The notes: generated by a model not told the origin, from the sequence alone. Positions 1,622-10,474 are shown, counted from the first letter of the stretch. The stretch: DNA of 10,474 nt from Tolypothrix carrinoi HA7290-LM1 (GCA_019358935.1 JAHHIK010000179.1:1-10474); one strand, 5' to 3'. A program made the numbers and translations.

Positions 1622-4600
1622 CTAGGCAAGCATAACAGCGATCGCTCCTCCAAGTGCTGCGAAAATGGCAGATACAGTCGCGGTTGCAAACAACCACCAA
1701 GCTGCTGATGCTGCTGCTTTACGGGTTTCTTCTGCTTGTCGCTGCGCTTGCTGTTTCACTTCTTCCAAGCGTCGCTGTGCTTCTTGTTGAATGCGTTCAG
1801 CGCGTTGTAGCACTTTGTTACGCGCTCCTTCGATTTGGTCGATAATTCGGTTAGCGTCTTCTTCAGAGATATCCTCACGAGAACTCATAACTGCTACCAA
1901 GGTTTCGCGGTTGAAGGAAGATAGGCGATCGCGCATTGCTTCAAATCCCGCTTGCGGATCGTCGAACATCTGGCGAACATCGCGCTTGATACCATCATAA
2001 TTCAATTCCGGACGTTCCAAAGAGTTAAGGTAGTTACGAATTGTGCCAAAAATACCATCTAGCACACCTTGAATCTGGCGTTGAATACCCCGCACTTGTT
2101 CAACAAACTGCTGCTGCACTGATATCATATTATCAGCAATTTGTGCTGCTTCTTCGTCGGTAATATCTTCGCGAATTTTCAGCAAAGCGATGATTGTCGA
2201 GCGGTCAAATTGGGAAAGACGTTCAGTTATACTTTCCATTCCCACTCGCGGATCGTGCAACAGTAATTGCAAGTCGCGTTTGATACCTTCAGGATTAAGT
2301 TCTTCCTTGCCAGTTCCTCGCAGATACTCTTGCAAATAAGCTTGGAAAGTTTCTACTCTTTGCTGCGTTCTAGTAGCTAAACGACGCGGCGCACGGACAA
2401 TATCGCGAATTGAGGTTTGCACCGAATCGATGACTTGATTGACTTGTTCTTCGCTCAAGTCTTTACGTTGGCTCAGTAGTTTCACCAGCGTATCTCTATC
2501 AACTTGCGACAACCGCCGCCGTAGTGCCATCGCTCCCTCTTGGGGGTTTTCAAACAATCGATTTAAATCGCGTTGAATACCTTCGGGGTTAAGTTCTTGT
2601 TTGCCAGTATTTCGCAGATAATCGGCGATCGCACTCGTCGCTGAGTCGTATTGCTCTTTAGCTTTATCGGCTAAAGCTTGCGGTGCTTGACGAACACTGC
2701 TCCAAGATTGATCAATAGCATCAATCGCTTGATTAACTTGGTCTTCGCTCAAATCTTCTCGCTGACTCAACAATTGTACCAGCGTATCGCGATCAAAGCG
2801 AGACAACCGCGCCCGAATTGAGGAAATTCCCGCTTGCGGATCGTCCAAAAGCGTTTTCAAATCAGCGCGAATCCCATCCGGATTCAATTCTCCTTTGCCA
2901 GTGTTACGCAGATATGACTCTAAATTCAACCACAGCGTTTCTGCTTGATATTTTGCTTGATCTGCCAGTCCTTTGGACTCAATCAAAGCTTGATCGCGTT
3001 GATTTTCCAACTGGTCGAGAATTCTGTCAGCTTCCTCTGGCTGAATATCATTGCGTTGCAGCAGTATATCTCGCATTTCCTGACGGTCAAATTGAGCCAA
3101 ACGCCGAGATAAAGTTTCATAATCCGCATCAGAGTCTTCCAGCAACGGTTTGAAATTCTGCTGAATTGCTTCTGGGGTCAAATCCGCTTTTGGTGTAACT
3201 AGTAAATAACTTTCAACTCGACGTTGTAAGTCTTGTACTATTTCCCTTTCTTCCGCTGCGGTGACTTCTACCAGCACTTGTTGACGGATAACTTCAAGCT
3301 GATTGACAATCCGCTCAATTTCTGCTTGCGTTAACAATCCCCGTTCTTGGAGAATATTAGCAAAATCTTGTTTGGAAAGTCGCTCTATCTCGCGCTTTAC
3401 TGTTCCCGGATCGGCAGATGGATCGTAGAGTACATCACGAAATTCTTCCGCGATTTTTTCTCGACTTAGTTGCCAAGCATAAGTGTTGTGCAGGTAGTTT
3501 TCTACATCAGCACGAATCGGGCTGAAAGGCTGCTTTGGTGTGGGAACTCCTAATTGATCGGCTTTTTCGGTTACTTTATCTTTGGCAGTAGAAAGACTAC
3601 CTAAGATTTTTTCTACATCCAAATCTGACAAATCCGTGCGTCCCATCACTATACCAGTCAGCGCAGTGATTCCCTGTTGCAGAGTTCGCTGAATTGGACC
3701 TGGAGTAGCTTCTTGAGTTGCTCTTTGGTCAGCTTCTTTAGAAGCACGCATCTCGGACATTAACTGATCCACCTTGCGGTTCAGTTCATCTGTCTTAGTT
3801 TGTCCTGGCTGTACAGATTTGAGATATTCCATCAACTCAGCCAAGCGGTCTTGACCGGGTTTGTTACTAACAACCTGTTGCCAAACGCCATATAATGTGT
3901 CCGCAAGTCGGTTAATATCGCGTTTGGAAAGGTCAGTGCGATCGCTTACCAAACTAACAAACTTGTCCCGGTCGATGTTGCGTAAATCTGGACTACCCGC
4001 TAGTGCTTTTAATTGCGGATCGTTGAGCAATTTTTCAAACTCACCCCGAATTTTCGATAAATCGAGTTCAGGGGGACGCACCATTTCTAAGTAATCTTCG
4101 ATATTGTCTCGGATAGTACCTGGGTCAATCGCACTGCCGATTTCTCGGCGTACAGCGGCAGCTGCTGCTTCTGCGGTGGCGACAACTTGATTATTGATCG
4201 CTTTCGCCCCCAATGCGGCGGTAGCCGTCCCCATAATCGCCTGAAAGCCGGATGTTGCGGTATTTACGACCGAGCCAACTAAGGAACCTACCGTAGTTGA
4301 ACTTACCCACACCAACAGCAAAAAGTACGCACCCCAAATTACTAAACCTAAAATCGCTCCCAATCCCGGACTCAAAATTAGGAGGCTCAATTTTACCGCT
4401 AAGAAAGTGGCGATTAATAGAGCGATCGTCACCGTGACTAGCGTCCAAATCCCGACCGCAGTACCAATTTTGCGAATTGTGCCGCCTATACTATCATGAT
4501 TTGAGCTAGAATCCGAGTCTGATTGATGCCCCAGGTAAGTAATACCTGCGGCTACCGAGAGGTTTGTTAAGACTAATTGGATGGCAAAGGCTAGAATCAC

Positions 4601-4747
4601 GCCAGAAATCAAAGCCACAAAAAAGCGCGGTCCTGAAGTCACAACAGATGCCTGTGCTGGCGTAATTGTTGAGGGGTCTACTGGAACCTGTGCCAACCAA
4701 AAGAGCGGCTTGTACAGTCCCAGCATTATTTGTGTACTCTGAAACAT
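1622..4747 (-). CDS. Large membrane protein (1041 aa) with about 3 N-terminal TM helices, about 7 helical repeats and a C-terminal TM helix; function unknown
   Basis: Hydrophobic segments at about aa 42-150 and aa 1015-1040. Repeated motif YLxxTGKxELNPEGIxxDLxxLxxDPQxG...RLSxFDRxTLVxLLSQRxDLSE. RBS-like AAGGAA upstream of the ATG. Confidence 0.9.
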   Translation of the reverse strand: MFQSTQIMLGLYKPLFWLAQVPVDPSTITPAQASVVTSGPRFFVALISGVILAFAIQLVLTNLSVAAGITYLGHQSDSDSSSNHDSIGGTIRKIGTAVGIWTLVTVTIALLIATFLAVKLSLLILSPGLGAILGLVIWGAYFLLLVWVSSTTVGSLVGSVVNTATSGFQAIMGTATAALGAKAINNQVVATAEAAAAAVRREIGSAIDPGTIRDNIEDYLEMVRPPELDLSKIRGEFEKLLNDPQLKALAGSPDLRNIDRDKFVSLVSDRTDLSKRDINRLADTLYGVWQQVVSNKPGQDRLAELMEYLKSVQPGQTKTDELNRKVDQLMSEMRASKEADQRATQEATPGPIQRTLQQGITALTGIVMGRTDLSDLDVEKILGSLSTAKDKVTEKADQLGVPTPKQPFSPIRADVENYLHNTYAWQLSREKIAEEFRDVLYDPSADPGTVKREIERLSKQDFANILQERGLLTQAEIERIVNQLEVIRQQVLVEVTAAEEREIVQDLQRRVESYLLVTPKADLTPEAIQQNFKPLLEDSDADYETLSRRLAQFDRQEMRDILLQRNDIQPEEADRILDQLENQRDQALIESKGLADQAKYQAETLWLNLESYLRNTGKGELNPDGIRADLKTLLDDPQAGISSIRARLSRFDRDTLVQLLSQREDLSEDQVNQAIDAIDQSWSSVRQAPQALADKAKEQYDSATSAIADYLRNTGKQELNPEGIQRDLNRLFENPQEGAMALRRRLSQVDRDTLVKLLSQRKDLSEEQVNQVIDSVQTSIRDIVRAPRRLATRTQQRVETFQAYLQEYLRGTGKEELNPEGIKRDLQLLLHDPRVGMESITERLSQFDRSTIIALLKIREDITDEEAAQIADNMISVQQQFVEQVRGIQRQIQGVLDGIFGTIRNYLNSLERPELNYDGIKRDVRQMFDDPQAGFEAMRDRLSSFNRETLVAVMSSREDISEEDANRIIDQIEGARNKVLQRAERIQQEAQRRLEEVKQQAQRQAEETRKAAASAAWWLFATATVSAIFAALGGAIAVMLA

Positions 4748-5223: not shown

Positions 5224-5427
5224 ATGGAATCTCGCCCTACTACCGATTTACCACCTGTTGCTAAAGAATATAACGGCATAGACAGAAACGCTTTTAAATT
5301 TGGCTATAATCCTCAAGCTGAATTATGGAACGGTCGTCTTGCAATGATTGGCTTTCTTGCTTACTTAGTTTGGGATTTAGCAGGCTATAGCGTTCTGCGT
5401 GACGTGTTACATTTCATTGGTTACTAA
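5224..5427 (+). CDS. hli: High-light-inducible protein (HLIP / CAB-ELIP-HLIP family), copy 1
   Basis: AELWNGRLAMIGF chlorophyll-binding motif (ExxNGRxAM) in a single TM helix. AGGA upstream of the ATG. Confidence 0.95.
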   Translation: MESRPTTDLPPVAKEYNGIDRNAFKFGYNPQAELWNGRLAMIGFLAYLVWDLAGYSVLRDVLHFIGY

Positions 5428-5469: not shown

Positions 5470-5673
5470 ATGCAAACTCGTCCTACTACCGATTTACCAC
5501 CAGTTGCTAAAGAATATAACGGTGTAGACAGAAACGCTTTCCTATTTGGCTTTAATCCTCAAGCCGAATTGTGGAATGGTCGCTTGGCAATGATTGGCTT
5601 TCTTGCTTACTTACTTTGGGATTTAGCAGGCTATAGCGTTCTGCGTGACGTGCTGCATTTCATTGGTTACTAA
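5470..5673 (+). CDS. hli: High-light-inducible protein, copy 2
   Basis: Same ExxNGRLAMIGF motif; AGGAG RBS upstream. Confidence 0.95.
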   Translation: MQTRPTTDLPPVAKEYNGVDRNAFLFGFNPQAELWNGRLAMIGFLAYLLWDLAGYSVLRDVLHFIGY

Positions 5674-5724: not shown

Positions 5725-5928
5725 ATGCAAACTCGTCCTACTACCGATTTACCACCAGTTGCTAAAGAATATAACGGTGTAGACAGAAACGCTTTCCTAT
5801 TTGGCTTTAATCCTCAAGCCGAATTGTGGAATGGTCGCTTGGCAATGATTGGCTTTCTTGCTTACTTACTTTGGGATTTAGCAGGATTCAGCGTCGTTCG
5901 TGACGTATTGCACATCATCGGTTATTAA
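5725..5928 (+). CDS. hli: High-light-inducible protein, copy 3
   Basis: Same ExxNGRLAMIGF motif; AGGAG RBS upstream. Confidence 0.95.
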   Translation: MQTRPTTDLPPVAKEYNGVDRNAFLFGFNPQAELWNGRLAMIGFLAYLLWDLAGFSVVRDVLHIIGY

Positions 5929-5988: not shown

Positions 5989-6017
5989 GTACAGACGTTC
6001 CATTGGAACGTCTCTAC
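5989..6017 (-). repeat. GTAG-type REP palindrome
   Basis: Minus strand GTAGAGACGTTCC-AAT-GGAACGTCTGTAC, a 13-bp stem with one mismatch. It overlaps the kinase stop codon. Confidence 0.75.
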
Positions 6018-7135
6018 CTAACTATTCCCACTTTTGGCAAGCGAAGCCAAAAACGCGAACCACCTTCCGGACGAGGTGAATAACCAATTTCCCCTCCCCA
6101 ACGTTCAACAGTAATCCGACAAAAATAAAGTCCCAAACCGACTCTACCGGATCTACCTCTTCCTTGAGAAAACTTTTGGAATAAATTTTGTGCCATTTCC
6201 GGTGCTACACCAGAACCCTCATCATTGACAGTTACTAAAACATATTCCCCATCTTGTTGCAAACCAATTGTCACAACAGACCCCCCAGGACTGTGACGCA
6301 AAGCATTTTCTGCCAGATTTGAAATTACTCTATCCAAACGCGATTTATCACCAACCACTTTCCAGTCTGCTGTCAAGTCAACATTGCCAGCAAGCAATAA
6401 CCGCATTTTGTTCAGCGAAAAAGTAGGGGTTAAAATTTCGATAACTTCTTGTATAGAAATTAAGGCATCCGGTGCTTTATCGACATCAACAGTGAAAGCT
6501 TCCAGCGATTGGACTTCTGCCGAAAATGCATCTAATATTTCCCTAATCAGCATTTCTTGCTTGATAGATTGTTTTCGACCAATTTGTAAACGTTCTTTAC
6601 CCTTTGGTGTCAAGTTTTCAAATTCCAGCAATGCCAAACAGCAATTAATACCGCTTAATTGACCTGCGATATCATGTATAATGCAGTGAATTAAAACTTC
6701 TTTTTTTTGATTCTCTTTTAATAACTGTTGATAAGTTAATTTATTTTCTCTAGCTTTCTGAATTATAGATTGTATCTCTTTGTATTCACCATCTAACGAT
6801 TCGATTAATAAAATTTTTTTATTATTTATACAAATTGCTGAAGCTTCAAAGTAATATTCTTCACCAGTTAAATCTATTTCAGTCCATAAACCTGATTTTA
6901 GTTTCTCTTGATTATTGCTTTGCCAGAATTCTTCAGCATCAATTAAAAAGTTTTCTATAAAGGAAAACTCTTCTTCAGGTATTAATATTTCCATCCCCGA
7001 TGTCACCCCACGACGACAAAAAGACCGCAACCAATTTGGTACGGTTCCAGTAATTCTAAAAGAGTTTACATTAAGTCTTTCTAATACTAAGATATTCAAG
7101 GCTGCGAAAACATCTGCCGTAAGAGACTCGCTCAT
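6014..7135 (-). CDS. Soluble sensor histidine kinase (N-terminal PAS-like domain, HisKA, HATPase_c)
   Basis: H-box IIHDIAGQL (His154), N-box ISNLAENALRHS, G1 DEGSGV, F-box LFQKF, G2 GLGLYFCR. No TM segment. Confidence 0.92.
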   Translation of the reverse strand: MSESLTADVFAALNILVLERLNVNSFRITGTVPNWLRSFCRRGVTSGMEILIPEEEFSFIENFLIDAEEFWQSNNQEKLKSGLWTEIDLTGEEYYFEASAICINNKKILLIESLDGEYKEIQSIIQKARENKLTYQQLLKENQKKEVLIHCIIHDIAGQLSGINCCLALLEFENLTPKGKERLQIGRKQSIKQEMLIREILDAFSAEVQSLEAFTVDVDKAPDALISIQEVIEILTPTFSLNKMRLLLAGNVDLTADWKVVGDKSRLDRVISNLAENALRHSPGGSVVTIGLQQDGEYVLVTVNDEGSGVAPEMAQNLFQKFSQGRGRSGRVGLGLYFCRITVERWGGEIGYSPRPEGGSRFWLRLPKVGIVR

Positions 7136-7217
7136 AATTTTAACTAGATAAAATAAGTATAATTTTTATTTATTAAAACTAAAAATGTATTGCTTCGCTT
7201 GCTTTGTTAGCAGTAAA

Positions 7218-7619
7218 TTACTGATTAAAAATTTTTAGTAATTTTTCCTGAGACAGGCTAGAATCGTTTACTTGTTGTTGAATGACTGAGAGTTGTGTTT
7301 CATCCTTAGTAGCATCTAACAGCAGCACCCAATCTCCTTCCTCTGTCGGGAAGATATGCACATCTGCACAAATCCCGTATTCGGTTTTCATTCGAGGTAA
7401 AAATAAGGGAAAGTCATCCAATGGCAGCAACCCTTCGAGAAAAAAAATTTGCTCTCCTACATTTGTCCCTTTTTCTAAGTTAGTAACTCCGTATGCTGCC
7501 AGCTTACCTCCCCAAGTTAATAAATAACCATCTTTACTTACTAAAAGATAAGCCAAAGAAAGTTGTTCTAACATCAAAGTAAGAACATAAGCAGCAACAG
7601 CAGCGGGGACATTTTGCAT
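7218..7619 (-). CDS. Stand-alone PAS-like domain protein (133 aa)
   Basis: ATG directly abuts the GTPase stop (TAAATG). PAS-like pattern AYLLVSKDGYLLTWG...ADVHIFP...WVLLLDAT followed by a helical tail. The CDS is well supported; the fold is inferred. Confidence 0.8.
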   Translation of the reverse strand: MQNVPAAVAAYVLTLMLEQLSLAYLLVSKDGYLLTWGGKLAAYGVTNLEKGTNVGEQIFFLEGLLPLDDFPLFLPRMKTEYGICADVHIFPTEEGDWVLLLDATKDETQLSVIQQQVNDSSLSQEKLLKIFNQ

Positions 7620-8117
7620 TTATGCCTCCAATATTTGATTAGCAAGTGTTTGAAAAACTTCTTCTACACCCAGCCCAGTTTTAGCGCTGGTTTTAATTAC
7701 AGTCCAGCCACGTTGTATAATCGCATCGATTTCTGCCGTTTCAATTTCCCATTCATCTAGCAAATCTGATTTGTTAAGTACAAGAATAAAGGGAATTTGT
7801 CCAATCGTTTCTTCTACTCTTGTTTGCAGACTGAAGGCTTTTTCTAGGGTGTTGTGTCGAGTTCCATCCACTACGATTAAATAGCCAGACGAACCTCGTA
7901 AATAAGACAGTCGCACTTTTTGAAATTCGTCTTCCCCATAAAGATCCCAAAGAATAAAATTTAACTCTTTGTCTTGAATCTTCACTACTTTTTTGTCAAT
8001 TTTTACACCCACAGTAGTTTGATAGATTTCCGAAAATATGCTATATACAAATTTGGCTACTAAACTTGTTTTACCTGTGGCAAAAGCACCTACCATGCAT
8101 ATTTTTTTTTGAAGCAT
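7620..8117 (-). CDS. Ras/Rab-like single-domain small GTPase (prokaryotic Rup type)
   Basis: G1 GAFATGKTS, G2 YQTTVG, G3 WDLYGE, G4 NKSD, G5 TSAKTG. 165 aa with no C-terminal prenylation motif. Confidence 0.95.
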   Translation of the reverse strand: MLQKKICMVGAFATGKTSLVAKFVYSIFSEIYQTTVGVKIDKKVVKIQDKELNFILWDLYGEDEFQKVRLSYLRGSSGYLIVVDGTRHNTLEKAFSLQTRVEETIGQIPFILVLNKSDLLDEWEIETAEIDAIIQRGWTVIKTSAKTGLGVEEVFQTLANQILEA

Positions 8118-8130
8118 AAAAAATTATCAC

Positions 8131-9888
8131 TTATTTAGGCTTTTCAGATAAAAATACCTTGAAAGATACCCTAGAATTAGATTTTTTTTCTGATTTTATC
8201 GATTTGATGTCTAACGACTCGTTAAAACCCCCTCCTACGGTTTGAAAATTGCTGGCGTTAATTCCAGAAGCGGTTATATAAGATAAGATTTTGTTAGCAC
8301 GGGCTTGGCTGAGTGTCATCTTTTCTTGTTTTCTAACTGCATTCTCATGTCCTATTATTTGAATACGTACATCCTGATGCAGATATTTTGCAGTATTCAG
8401 TAGTTTTTGCATTTTTACTACTAAATTCTGCATTTTATTCTCTTCGCCAGGTAAAAGCTCTGCTGTATTTTCTAAAAAAAAGAGCATATTTTCTTCTATT
8501 TCTTTTTTATATGAATTGAGTTTTTTTAATTCTGGATTTAAAAGATTATTGTATTCAAATTGAGTTATTCCGGGAATAAAATGCCATAATTTTTGTGCTG
8601 ACAAAATCCATTGACGAGGAGCAGAACCTGTAGCGTGAAGAATGCCATTTTCGTCTACATTTAATGATACAGTTTCTGGAGGTTGAAGTAATTGTGCGGC
8701 TCTTTTTGCGGTAAATTGTGGTTGTAAAGATATGTAAGGTTCCCAGTTACTGATGACTTTTTTGGGAGGTATGTTTGCTTGTTCCATTAGCGCTTTTGGA
8801 TCTACTGCTAACGGATCGCGCATTCCCGAAAGAAAATATTTACCGTGTCGCGAACTTGCTTTGGTGACTACAATTCCTGGTTGAGAGTTAAGTTTGTCTA
8901 AATAAGCATTCCAGCGAAGTTGATCTCTAATCGCAAAAAAACTTGCAATTGAGCAGGCGATCGCTATTGTACCTAAGAATGTCCAGGCATAAGTATAATT
9001 CTGTTTGCGTGGCAATTTATATTGAACTTCTAAACAAGCTTCCAGATAAGGCTTACTTGCTGAAAATGGCTGTGTTTCCCCTTGAAATTCCCCAAGTTCT
9101 TTGTTCAACTTCAGGTGAATTTTTTCTATTGCTTCTTGAAAAACTAATCTTAATTCCTCGCGTGCTCTTCCTCGAATAATTCCTGCTAATATCGCTTGAG
9201 GTCCCTCTTCAATCCAAATAGTCAGTTCTCCAAACCTCAAACTTTGCAATGATTCACCTTTTTGCACGCTGAAAGAGTCTTTAACAAAATCCCGGATAGC
9301 AGTCAACATTGCGGAAACCAAATCCGGATCTTGAGCGGCTACTTGCGGCGCTAAAATATGTTGTAGCAACAATCCCGTTTTTTTATGAATTAAAAAAACC
9401 TGCTCTACACGATAAACCATAGTGCGAAGCAGCACAATTTCCGCGAATGATTTGCCTGTACGTTGTGCTTCTAATCTCCACTTCAGGCTCTGTAATGATA
9501 AACTATGTTCCAAAGTTTGATTTAAAGATTGAATCATCTCGTCAAGAGCTGTAGACATAGCCTTGCGAGTAGCTGGTCCGATGACGGGAAAAATCGTTTC
9601 TGAAAGAGTATTTAAATCTTTTTTAACAGAATATTGAATCGCATCTTCGATGGTCGGTACCATTGCTTCACTGAGAATTTTATCTTGCATTGACCGCAAA
9701 ATAATCGCTTCTGGAAGCAAGCGACTGATATCTTCAGCTTGAACTTGAACGTCGTCTAATTTTTTGTATAGTTTGTTAACTTTGGTCGGTTCAAGACCAA
9801 GAAGCAAACTGCGAAGTTCACTTAGTTCATTGCTGGTGGCATTATTTGGGGATTCTTTCGCTATTTCATTTGTGGAATAGTCACTCAT
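8131..9888 (-). CDS. Single-pass membrane protein: N-terminal helical region plus putative longin-like domain, TM helix, two BON-like segments and a C-terminal OmpA-like domain
   Basis: TM segment AWTFLGTIAIACSIASFFAI. OmpA-C pattern IIGH...LSQARA...SGI...G.G...NSRVSF. ATG at 9888 preferred over TTG at 9894 because AGGGG lies 9 nt upstream of it. BON-like call is by eye. Confidence 0.88.
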   Translation of the reverse strand: MSDYSTNEIAKESPNNATSNELSELRSLLLGLEPTKVNKLYKKLDDVQVQAEDISRLLPEAIILRSMQDKILSEAMVPTIEDAIQYSVKKDLNTLSETIFPVIGPATRKAMSTALDEMIQSLNQTLEHSLSLQSLKWRLEAQRTGKSFAEIVLLRTMVYRVEQVFLIHKKTGLLLQHILAPQVAAQDPDLVSAMLTAIRDFVKDSFSVQKGESLQSLRFGELTIWIEEGPQAILAGIIRGRAREELRLVFQEAIEKIHLKLNKELGEFQGETQPFSASKPYLEACLEVQYKLPRKQNYTYAWTFLGTIAIACSIASFFAIRDQLRWNAYLDKLNSQPGIVVTKASSRHGKYFLSGMRDPLAVDPKALMEQANIPPKKVISNWEPYISLQPQFTAKRAAQLLQPPETVSLNVDENGILHATGSAPRQWILSAQKLWHFIPGITQFEYNNLLNPELKKLNSYKKEIEENMLFFLENTAELLPGEENKMQNLVVKMQKLLNTAKYLHQDVRIQIIGHENAVRKQEKMTLSQARANKILSYITASGINASNFQTVGGGFNESLDIKSIKSEKKSNSRVSFKVFLSEKPK

Positions 9889-10008
9889 TGCCAATATCCC
9901 CTAATTTATAGTTGATAATAAGTTGTATTATGTCGTCACTGACAAGGGGAGAAGCAAGTAAAAAAGAAAAAATAACTTTTTTTAACTTTTATCTTGTTCA
10001 TCTGGTGT

Positions 10009-10347
10009 TTATTGTTGATTCAGTCGAATGGCTAATTCTGTAAACAAGTGTGCCAAGGTAGAACGGTCAGTTTTATCTTTACGAAGTTCTTGAGTATCTC
10101 GTTCTAAAGCCGCTAAGATTTCTTCATATTTTTGGCGGATATCATCGTGTAAATTTTTCGATTGGTTGAGAATCTGCTCTCGCATCTCTCGCTGATTATT
10201 AGTAGTTTTTTCTTCAAATTGAGCAAGTTTGTTTTCTAAGGAGATAGTCATATTTTTATGTTGTTCGGTAAGTGCTTTCAATGCTTGACCGCGTTCTCCT
10301 TGCTCGTTATTTACCTGCTTGGCTAATGACGAAATCTCTGTTTTAAA
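10009..10347 (-). pseudogene. 3' part of a coiled-coil protein gene, interrupted by an IS66-family element
   Basis: The frame is open with coiled-coil character for 113 codons from the IS boundary (FKTEISSLAKQVNNEQGERGQALKALTEQ...DRSTLAHLFTELAIRLNQQ*). The TTG start at 10281 is internal and has no evident RBS. Confidence 0.75.
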
Positions 10348-10474
10348 GTAAGGATTCAGGCCTAAAGTTAAGGTATTAAAGATGGTGCTTGCATATCAGG
10401 GTTGACCATTGCTTTCATAGCTTGCTCAAAAAATTCAATTACGGAACGTCCTTGGCGACGGCAAGTTTGTATAA
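10348..10474 (-). mobile_element. Right end of an IS66-family insertion sequence (continues beyond the window)
   Basis: Terminal GTAAGGATTCAGG at 10348-10360 (IS66 inverted repeats start with GTAA), lying just after a transposase-like stop codon. Confidence 0.8.
10368..10474 (-). CDS. C-terminus of an IS66-family transposase (partial)
   Basis: IQTCRRQGRSVIEFFEQAMKAMVNPDMQAPSLIP* fits the IS66 C-terminal pattern TCxxxGxxxxxF/Y...PSLLP. Not in the supplied ORF track. Confidence 0.8.
   Translation of the reverse strand, partial: IQTCRRQGRSVIEFFEQAMKAMVNPDMQAPSLIP

Follow-up and report, generated by a model that had tools for sequence, protein, structure and literature searches.

A partly broken copy of the Group 1 Rup GTPase module in Tolypothrix carrinoi and its possible role as an envelope-to-kinase relay

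Small GTPases of the Rup family were defined through genome comparison by Wuichet & Søgaard-Andersen (Genome Biol Evol 2014/2015; PMC4316618), who described around Group 1 Rup a neighbourhood that encodes a cytoplasmic coiled-coil protein, a protein with an unknown domain, a transmembrane (TM) helix and a C-terminal OmpA domain, the Rup GTPase itself and an output enzyme that is either a GGDEF/EAL protein or a histidine kinase. The N-terminal region of this output enzyme contains an invariant glutamine that was proposed to replace in trans the Gln missing in Group 1 Rup (PMC4316618). In their Table S2, rows described as 'DUFY>DUFX:OmpA>Rup>' include all3030 of Nostoc PCC 7120 (165 amino acids, aa), Ava_0879 (165 aa) and Npun_F1891 (166 aa). 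According to the passages of that paper that deal with the matter, no Rup had been characterised experimentally by then, and Dong et al. 2007 is cited for the transcription of one Rup in N. punctiforme; our literature search, which covered papers other than subscription-only ones, found no later or experimental work on Rup GTPases or on the Nostoc/Anabaena locus tags.

Here, we analysed a stretch of 10,474 bases from Tolypothrix carrinoi HA7290-LM1 (GCA_019358935.1 JAHHIK010000179.1:1-10474; hereafter the window), which is a complete contig (C179) of a Nostocales genome of 7.96 Mb and which carries a five-gene module built around a small GTPase. Judged from its sequence, this module is a copy of the Group 1 Rup neighbourhood and not a new system, its likeness to all3030, Ava_0879 and Npun_F1891 being one of size (165-166 aa) and gene order as tabulated in the published source, not of aligned sequence. 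An earlier note on this DNA had suggested that the module would be a eukaryote-like switch; a claim of novelty does not hold, since this neighbourhood and, in essence, this hypothesis had already appeared in print in 2014 (PMC4316618, section 18 and Table S2). What the window adds is a Group 1 Rup member with a pared-down adaptor and an insertion-split first gene; it is one further, partly broken, copy of a catalogued module.

Five open reading frames (ORFs), all on the minus strand, lie between 6014 and 10347 in the order coiled-coil protein, TM/OmpA protein, GTPase, 133-aa protein and kinase (Table 1). This co-orientation had been reported in the earlier note together with a parts list (TM/OmpA-like protein, small GTPase, PAS-like protein, histidine kinase) that is right according to Pfam and, for the PAS-like protein, according to its predicted fold. 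The two gaps that it gave are also present in the sequence: 13 nucleotides (nt) separate the 587-aa gene from the GTPase gene, and 0 nt separates the TAA stop codon of the GTPase gene from the ATG of the 133-aa gene, which is preceded by a GGAGG 5 nt upstream. The other two intergenic gaps of the module are 114 nt and 82 nt long. The coiled-coil gene that had been listed is present as well, but only as the 3' part (112 codons) of a 197-aa gene. The two hairpins that follow the kinase stop codon (-29.8 kcal/mol, z -6.2, with equal stability in 0/200 shuffles) probably mark the 3' end of the transcription unit; we infer this terminator role, a U-run being absent. A scan of the window for consensus promoters and terminators returned eight promoter-like sites and one terminator-like site, which was not above shuffled sequences.

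Table 1. Positions, in the window, of the module genes and of the features within and next to them.
Feature	Position	Strand	Basis
Right end of insertion element	10348-10474	-	inverted ends, direct repeat
First-gene ORF, 90 aa	10009-10281, open frame back to 10347	-	ORF listing
3' fragment of coiled-coil gene, 112 codons = residues 82-197	10009-10347	-	comparison with L004
587-aa bitopic membrane protein, 'DUFX:OmpA'	8131-9894	-	ORF, Pfam, hydrophobicity
Predicted longin/Roadblock-type domain, residues ~160-293	9016-9417	-	AF2, Foldseek, VIA
Predicted TM helix, residues 304-322	8929-8985	-	Kyte-Doolittle 19-residue maximum 1.87
Periplasmic OmpA-like domain, residues 473-573	8176-8478	-	Pfam OmpA 3.1e-10, 40.7 bits, cutoff 27.2
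165-aa GTPase	7620-8117	-	ORF, Pfam
133-aa PAS-fold protein	7218-7619	-	ORF, predicted structure
373-aa soluble histidine kinase	6014-7135	-	ORF, Pfam
Two strong hairpins right after kinase stop codon	5943-6013	-	folding energy

The GTPase consists of a single domain (Pfam Ras, E 4.1e-31 over residues 5-163 of the 165-aa protein) with the motifs GAFATGKT (G1), WDLYGED (G3), NKSD (G4) and SAK (G5), and Glu replaces the catalytic Gln in G3. This motif reads WD[LI][YH]GED in 81/81 orthologues, and the Gln position is occupied by E, H, Q, S, R or T in 16 more distant cyanobacterial copies, Q being found in 3/16. The nearest solved GTPase sequences are Rab23, Rab6 and Rab2 (E 5e-26), and the C-terminus (...ANQILEA) contains no Cys. 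The Ras-like motifs, the missing G3 glutamine and the match to the published neighbourhood bear out the assignment of this GTPase to the Rup family.

A search for relatives of the window GTPase gave 419 loci, the best 80 of which, all from Nostocales and with 73-98% identity, were compared with the window proteins by tblastn. The OmpA membrane protein was matched in 80/80 of these loci (partially in L002, L018 and L065), the kinase in 79/80 (partially in L002, L022 and L033, with none in L077) and the 133-aa protein in 67/80, while a homologue of the putative coiled-coil gene, which is split in our genome, was found upstream of the GTPase gene in 77/80. Gene order and strand were identical wherever module genes were matched, and the GTPase gene and the 133-aa gene were separated by 0 nt in 52/67 loci. 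The arrangement of the module genes therefore exceeds chance, and the neighbourhood comparison that the earlier note had called for found the order to be retained in nearly all of the 80 Nostocales loci. On a quick tree of 75 kinase sequences, loci that lack the 133-aa gene form two groups, one of seven Hapalosiphonaceae and one of three Desmonostoc/Komarekiella/Nostoc, which suggests that this gene is old in the Nostocales module and was lost at least twice. Single module genes contain internal stop codons in three loci (the OmpA gene in L003, the kinase gene in L013 and the coiled-coil gene in L039), and these are either pseudogenes or assembly errors in metagenome bins.

The 587-aa protein, the only module protein with a TM-grade hydrophobic stretch, is composed of a cytoplasmic N-terminal region, a single TM helix and a periplasmic OmpA-like domain. 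In OmpA-like domains, an Asp/Arg pair binds the peptide stem of peptidoglycan. The Arg of the SQARA motif is conserved in this copy, and NCBIfam models of MotB, TssL and PorE gave weak matches. For the cytoplasmic region, we built an alignment (A3, 39 sequences) from residues 1-302 of the window protein, 23 orthologues and a further 15 cyanobacterial homologues that are more distant, which yielded an AlphaFold2 (AF2) model with an overall predicted local distance difference test score (pLDDT) of 59.8. In this model, residues 1-129 are helical with a pLDDT below 50, and residues 161-290 have means of 58-94 over blocks of 10 residues, the lowest (58-67) being at 191-220. The modelled elements follow a longin-like order, with a short helix and then strand-strand-helix-strand-strand-strand-helix-helix (strands at 161-170, 176-181, 218-221, 224-230 and 234-241; helices at 190-208, 246-268 and 275-285). 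Foldseek returned 36 matches at E<=1e-3 in the PDB, and those listed are longin or Roadblock proteins, including TRAPP Bet5, MglB, AP sigma subunits, Asgard Roadblock3, Mon1-Ccz1, LAMTOR and Fuzzy. When model residues 160-293 were compared by VIA, Z ranged from 10.5 to 13.8, with 13.8 to the VAMP7 longin domain (root-mean-square deviation, rmsd, 2.3 over 116 residues), 13.7 to Fuzzy and 11.7 to MglB (rmsd 2.2 over 106 residues). The cytoplasmic domain (residues 160-293; hereafter the partner domain) is thus predicted to have a longin/Roadblock fold, a statement about fold only and about neither homology nor function; regulators of small GTPases usually have this fold. The remark in the earlier note that no MglB/roadblock gene is visible stands at the level of sequence, as Pfam found no Robl_LC7 match on the five module proteins, but not at the level of fold, where a longin/Roadblock domain is predicted inside the OmpA-like protein.

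The partner domain belongs to a large family, in which 6,356 representative proteins match at E<=1e-3 and 2,416 still do so at E<=1e-30; in 64 members that were scanned, OmpA was found in 52 and BON in 35, and no Pfam family covered the cytoplasmic domain. The ESM Atlas returned only unnamed 'hypothetical protein' clusters for it. Among 401 sampled cyanobacterial genomes, the GTPase was detected in 65 (E<=1e-20) and the partner-domain profile in 66 (E<=1e-10), the partner domain being present in 65/65 GTPase-positive genomes and the single extra genome being G394. Orthologues of the window GTPase (>=64% identity) are found in only about 14 of the 401 genomes, and the rest belong to a paralogue class at about 40% identity. 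We fetched 14 further cyanobacterial GTPase regions for a comparison of neighbourhoods. In 13/14 of them, an ORF for this cytoplasmic domain either just overlaps the GTPase gene or is found no more than a few hundred bases upstream of it, usually with a long N-terminal extension before the domain and with TM, BON and OmpA after it; in L124, an 851-aa hybrid kinase is encoded between the partner-domain ORF and the GTPase gene. Most of the 14 regions encode a signalling enzyme after the GTPase, be it a histidine kinase (HK), PAS-HK, PAS-HK-REC, a cyclase or, in L123, SpoIIE. By sequence comparison, the core of membrane protein, GTPase and signalling enzyme thus recurs across other cyanobacteria in a second paralogue class of about 40% identity. 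The cytoplasmic domain was also observed in ORFs of about 1205 aa far from any GTPase match (G156:C1:5128268-5129101, with equivalents in genus g23), so the gene for the longin-like domain is not always adjacent to a Rup gene.

The 133-aa protein has 244 near-length homologues, and the 120 of them that were listed are all from Nostocales-type cyanobacteria and nearly all annotated 'hypothetical protein'. The family is well conserved (mean column identity 67% in 32 sequences), and Pfam found no domain, PAS included, in the protein or in its near-length homologues. Its AF2 model (pLDDT 72.4) shows an N-terminal helix, five strands and a long C-terminal helix, and the top Foldseek matches are PAS domains (E ~2e-3). 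VIA aligned the model to the PAS domain of ThkA with a Z of 10.8 (rmsd 2.0 over 82 residues), and all 50 listed rows were PAS or PAS-type sensor domains. A stand-alone PAS fold is therefore predicted, in agreement with the 'PAS-like' label that the protein had been given. Q115, which lies in the helix after the PAS core, is invariant in the family (32/32).

Longer relatives of this protein were found next to Rup genes. In a distant cyanobacterium (L111), Rup is followed by the gene for a PAS-HisKA-HATPase-REC protein of 648 aa that resembles the 133-aa protein over its first 140 residues (33%, E 9e-16). In genome G095 (L112), the product of the gene after a Rup is 339 aa long and joins such a head (49%, E 1e-41) to a class III cyclase domain. 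Altogether, 39 longer homologues were identified: 30 have PF00211 and a length of 311-342 aa and align with 79-100% of the 133 residues at 43-62% identity, eight are kinases (522-810 aa), and the last has no Pfam domain. We examined the cyclase catalytic positions, which we take to be two metal-binding Asp, an Asn and an Arg, and all four were kept in 3/31 proteins (the 30 PF00211 homologues and the L112 protein). The closest longer relatives of the 133-aa protein thus appear from their sequences to be mostly catalytically degenerate class III cyclases, and we read the 133-aa protein as the putative PAS head of a Rup-module adaptor that was retained after loss of the cyclase domain. Locus L112 (G095:C13:64000-83999) contains two Rup modules in tandem, the first with a 465-aa membrane protein that lacks OmpA, a GTPase and a cyclase that has a PAS head and keeps its catalytic positions, and the second with a coiled-coil protein, a membrane protein, a GTPase and a kinase, without a 133-aa gene. 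The Nostocales operon may have arisen by deletion between two tandem modules such as these; the window GTPase and membrane protein are slightly closer to the other G095 module (68% vs 64% and 59% vs 52%, respectively).

The 373-aa kinase has a HATPase_c domain (Pfam, E 7.6e-26, residues 262-368), an H-box that carries His154, with H154 and D155 both invariant, and an N-terminal domain of about 145 residues; it has neither a receiver domain nor a TM-grade segment. Pfam HisKA did not match it, and NCBIfam kinase models align from about residue 140. Q126 is invariant in 30/30 orthologues. A pairwise alignment of the 133-aa protein with the kinase N-terminal domain is colinear (E 0.083) and places Q115 opposite Q126. 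Weak alignments with the N-terminal domains of paralogue-class kinases were obtained for both families (E 1.6e-3 and 1.9e-4), around the last strand and the helix that contains the Gln. Homology between the 133-aa protein and the kinase N-terminal domain is not claimed, as the comparison of their profiles was not significant and the likeness is limited to colinearity with a shared Gln helix. No response regulator gene was found in the window operon among its ORFs and Pfam matches.

The first gene of the module is interrupted in this genome. The intact coiled-coil ('DUFY') protein has 197 aa in Plectonema radiosum NIES-515 (L004); its residues 82-197 are encoded at C179:10012-10359, and its residues 1-89 at C74:40624-40890 on another contig of the same genome. 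A terminal inverted repeat, GTAAGGATTCAGGCC, lies at 10348-10362 (+ strand), followed at 10371-10472 (- strand) by the last 34 codons of a transposase-like ORF, and the matching inverted end, GTAAGGATTCAGG, starts at 40887 on contig C74 (G000), where the element covers C74:40887-41008. The 8-bp direct repeat TTTAAAAC flanks the element on both sides, on the C179 and C74 pieces. Since both gene pieces abut inverted ends and share the 8-bp repeat, an insertion element splits the coiled-coil gene, and the assembly broke inside this element, which is probably a multi-copy repeat because both contigs terminate within it. The element ends at 10348, in agreement with the limit that the earlier note had set for the module; the note did not describe the first gene as a fragment, although its mention of 'a strain with an intact copy' hints at one. 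GTAA ends and an 8-bp duplication are features of the IS66 family, to which this element may belong, and Pfam gave no match on the 34-aa and 21-aa transposase fragments or on the coiled-coil fragment. Because its first gene is split, the module may be impaired in this genome. In a sister species of the same genus (L002), the GTPase is 98% identical to that of the window, and blastn revealed two deletions, equivalent to window positions 9939-8290 and 7575-6369, through which the greater part of the membrane protein is lost along with the 133-aa gene and the N-terminal half of the kinase. The module thus looks dispensable in the genus of the window species.

Compared with Group 1 Rup neighbourhoods as described in PMC4316618, the window shares a single-domain Ras-like GTPase without the G3 Gln, an upstream DUFX:OmpA gene with a putative DUFY gene before it and a downstream enzyme with an invariant N-terminal Gln. 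It differs in that a 133-aa PAS-fold gene, which does not appear in the passages of that paper on this neighbourhood, stands between the GTPase and kinase genes, in that its first gene is disrupted by an insertion, and in that a longin/Roadblock fold is predicted here for DUFX, which the same passages treat as an unknown domain while predicting no MglB-type partner. The MglA/MglB pair of Myxococcus and Thermus likewise combines a small Ras-superfamily GTPase with a Roadblock-fold regulator (MglB Z 11.4-11.7, rmsd 2.2-2.4), but the window GTPase is Rab/Ras-like and not MglA-like by its nearest sequences, its Roadblock-like domain is invisible by sequence and fused to a TM helix and OmpA whereas MglB is a free dimer, and the output is a kinase here and motility machinery there. 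An actinobacterial conservon (CvnA-D, mfp conservon) is also an operon of histidine kinase, Roadblock-fold protein and small GTPase, an analogy that is drawn in part of PMC4316618; the window has neither a membrane-bound, HAMP-containing CvnA-type kinase (its kinase lacks a TM segment) nor a DUF742/CvnC protein (Pfam), its GTPase is of the Rup and not the MglA family, and its anchor is an OmpA-domain protein. Finally, eukaryotic longin/Roadblock platforms (Fuzzy-Inturned/Rab23, Mon1-Ccz1/Rab7-Ypt7, TRAPP, Ragulator/Rags) also place a Rab-like G domain beside a membrane-tied regulator of this fold, and Fuzzy (Z 13.7), Mon1-Ccz1 (Z 11.2), TRAPP and LAMTOR are among the best structural matches while Rab23 is the nearest solved GTPase. 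This likeness is at the level of fold only (8-22% identity), with a single domain instead of a tri-longin heterodimer and an exchange role that is putative, and the window GTPase lacks the prenylation Cys and the catalytic Gln of eukaryotic Rabs. The coincidence of Rab23 and Fuzzy may be due to chance.

We regard it as a toss-up whether the Nostocales Group 1 Rup module works as an envelope-to-kinase relay. In such a relay, the OmpA domain would tie the 587-aa protein to peptidoglycan, and the cytoplasmic longin/Roadblock domain would likely dock the GTPase at the membrane and set its nucleotide state as a platform for guanine nucleotide exchange (GEF) or GTPase activation (GAP). In its GTP-bound form, the GTPase may then engage the PAS-type domains at the N-termini of both the 133-aa protein and the kinase, and this binding would alter kinase autophosphorylation toward a response regulator encoded elsewhere than in the module. 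The 133-aa protein could serve as an adaptor, a competitor or a GAP cofactor, and the Gln that is conserved both in its C-terminal helix and in the linker of the kinase would correspond to the candidate proposed in 2014 for a glutamine supplied in trans (PMC4316618). The wiring from envelope to GTPase to kinase that the earlier note had put forward fits the predicted fold of the partner domain, its co-occurrence with the GTPase in 65/65 genomes, and the PAS fold of the 133-aa protein together with its homology to the heads of Rup-adjacent kinases and cyclases; within this wiring, the interaction itself, its nucleotide dependence and the direction of the signal are putative.

Several observations weigh against this reading. 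The longin/Roadblock assignment rests on one AF2 model, whose overall pLDDT is that given above, and a shared fold does not establish the function of the domain. A profile search of PDB sequences with the partner domain gave nothing relevant (best E 0.49, to a phage protein), and a lenient Pfam scan of the 39 partner-domain sequences (E up to 10) found no Robl_LC7/Roadblock and a Fuz_longin_1 match in 1/39 (E 0.092). At the position of the OmpA Asp, this copy has GHEN and so lacks the usual Asp of GHTD; most relatives have GHTD/GHTN there. The co-occurrence counts come from 401 genomes that are mutually related and are therefore not independent, so that 65/65 is a description and involves no statistical test, and the co-transcription of the five genes is putative. 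On the output side, neither the kinase family nor its N-terminal domain gave a significant profile match to the 133-aa family (E 0.069 and 0.13), the linker helix in which the conserved Gln lies could equally give it a structural role, and the 133-aa gene is dispensable since it is missing in 13/80 loci with two separate losses on the quick tree. The insertion in the window and the deletions in L002, moreover, argue for relaxed selection in the genus.

That the module in this genome is a decaying remnant without current function is a real possibility, which we place short of even. Besides the insertion with its 8-bp target duplication and the losses in L002, it would agree with the presence of GTPase orthologues (>=72% identity) in only 13/45 sampled genomes of the same family, any match at E<=1e-20 being found in 17/45; the other four genes nevertheless have unbroken reading frames that share 83-94% identity with their counterparts in Plectonema radiosum NIES-515, and the 114-nt spacer before the membrane-protein gene could hold a separate promoter. 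We also doubt, without dismissing it, a bolder form of the relay, in which the module would combine a Rab-like GTPase with a longin/Roadblock exchange or GAP platform anchored in the membrane and cell wall, as a prokaryotic counterpart of Fuzzy-Inturned/Rab23 or Mon1-Ccz1/Rab7; this would feed the state of peptidoglycan and envelope into two-component and second-messenger signalling via PAS-headed adaptors, which in Nostocales would have been pared down to the 133-aa head after loss of a pseudo-cyclase.

Signalling in the reverse direction, with the kinase and its PAS-type sensor as input, the GTPase as output and the membrane protein as effector or anchor, e.g. at the cell wall or septum, seems to us quite unlikely. 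PAS domains commonly sense ligands, the window operon lacks a response regulator gene, as does the actinobacterial conservon for which part of PMC4316618 posits the GTPase as output, and it is the output-type protein that varies while the membrane protein and GTPase stay constant. These variable partners are, however, classic output enzymes (cyclase, SpoIIE phosphatase, receiver-bearing hybrid kinases) that stand more naturally downstream, and neither the GTPase nor the membrane protein has a phosphoacceptor, which leaves no evident route from the kinase to them. We give similarly little credence to the idea that the GTPase and membrane protein form an MglA/MglB-like polarity or localisation switch (for pili, hormogonium motility or septal structures) with which the kinase and the 133-aa protein are merely co-regulated. 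The structural matches do include MglB (Z 11.7), envelope machines typically have anchors of the OmpA type, as the weak MotB, TssL and PorE matches recall, and profile comparison does not link the 133-aa protein to the kinase N-terminal domain. Yet the gene after the GTPase encodes a signalling enzyme in each of the two paralogue classes as well as in the Group 1 neighbourhoods of the published passages, these enzymes carry a related N-terminal region with the conserved Gln helix (by the alignments with paralogue N-terminal domains given above), the 133-aa gene directly abuts the GTPase gene in most loci that have it, and motility or secretion genes are not adjacent to the module. A GTPase-based anti-phage or conflict system is scarcely credible: the weak PADLOC hits, to ZorB for the OmpA region (E 2.4e-5) and to ZorA for the coiled coil (E 6.6e-4), cover generic OmpA/MotB and coiled-coil parts, the P-loop matches from PADLOC are equally generic, Pfam detected no effector domain such as a nuclease, protease or toxin, the output proteins are enzymes of signalling, and the flanking synteny is stable across Nostocales, unlike that of defence islands.

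Other genes were observed in the rest of the window. Three near-identical tandem genes of 67 aa (5224-5427, 5470-5673 and 5725-5928, + strand), on the strand opposite to the module, encode a chlorophyll a/b-binding motif of the high-light-inducible type (Pfam Chloroa_b-bind, 1.4e-5) and are syntenic in many Nostocales loci. A 1041-aa protein (1622-4747, - strand) has hydrophobic N- and C-terminal ends and about seven internal repeats, each of about 100 residues ('...ELNPEGI..DL..LL.DP...'). No Pfam family truly matches this protein, which recurs in synteny and with 72-97% identity in many Nostocales loci. Directly after a 343-aa ORF (349-1380), about nine copies of a 9-nt unit at ~1390-1500 encode repeats of the GQG/DKG/PCP type in all frames.

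Of the bacterial relatives of eukaryotic Ras and Rab, Rup GTPases have the sequence pattern that comes nearest to theirs. If the GTPase is truly regulated by the predicted longin/Roadblock platform, a pairing known from eukaryotic membrane traffic would also exist in bacteria, in a membrane-anchored form, and the all3030 cluster of Anabaena PCC 7120 and the Npun_F1891 cluster of Nostoc punctiforme would offer a tractable system for its ancestral logic. A GTPase-gated input would then also be added to those of histidine kinases.

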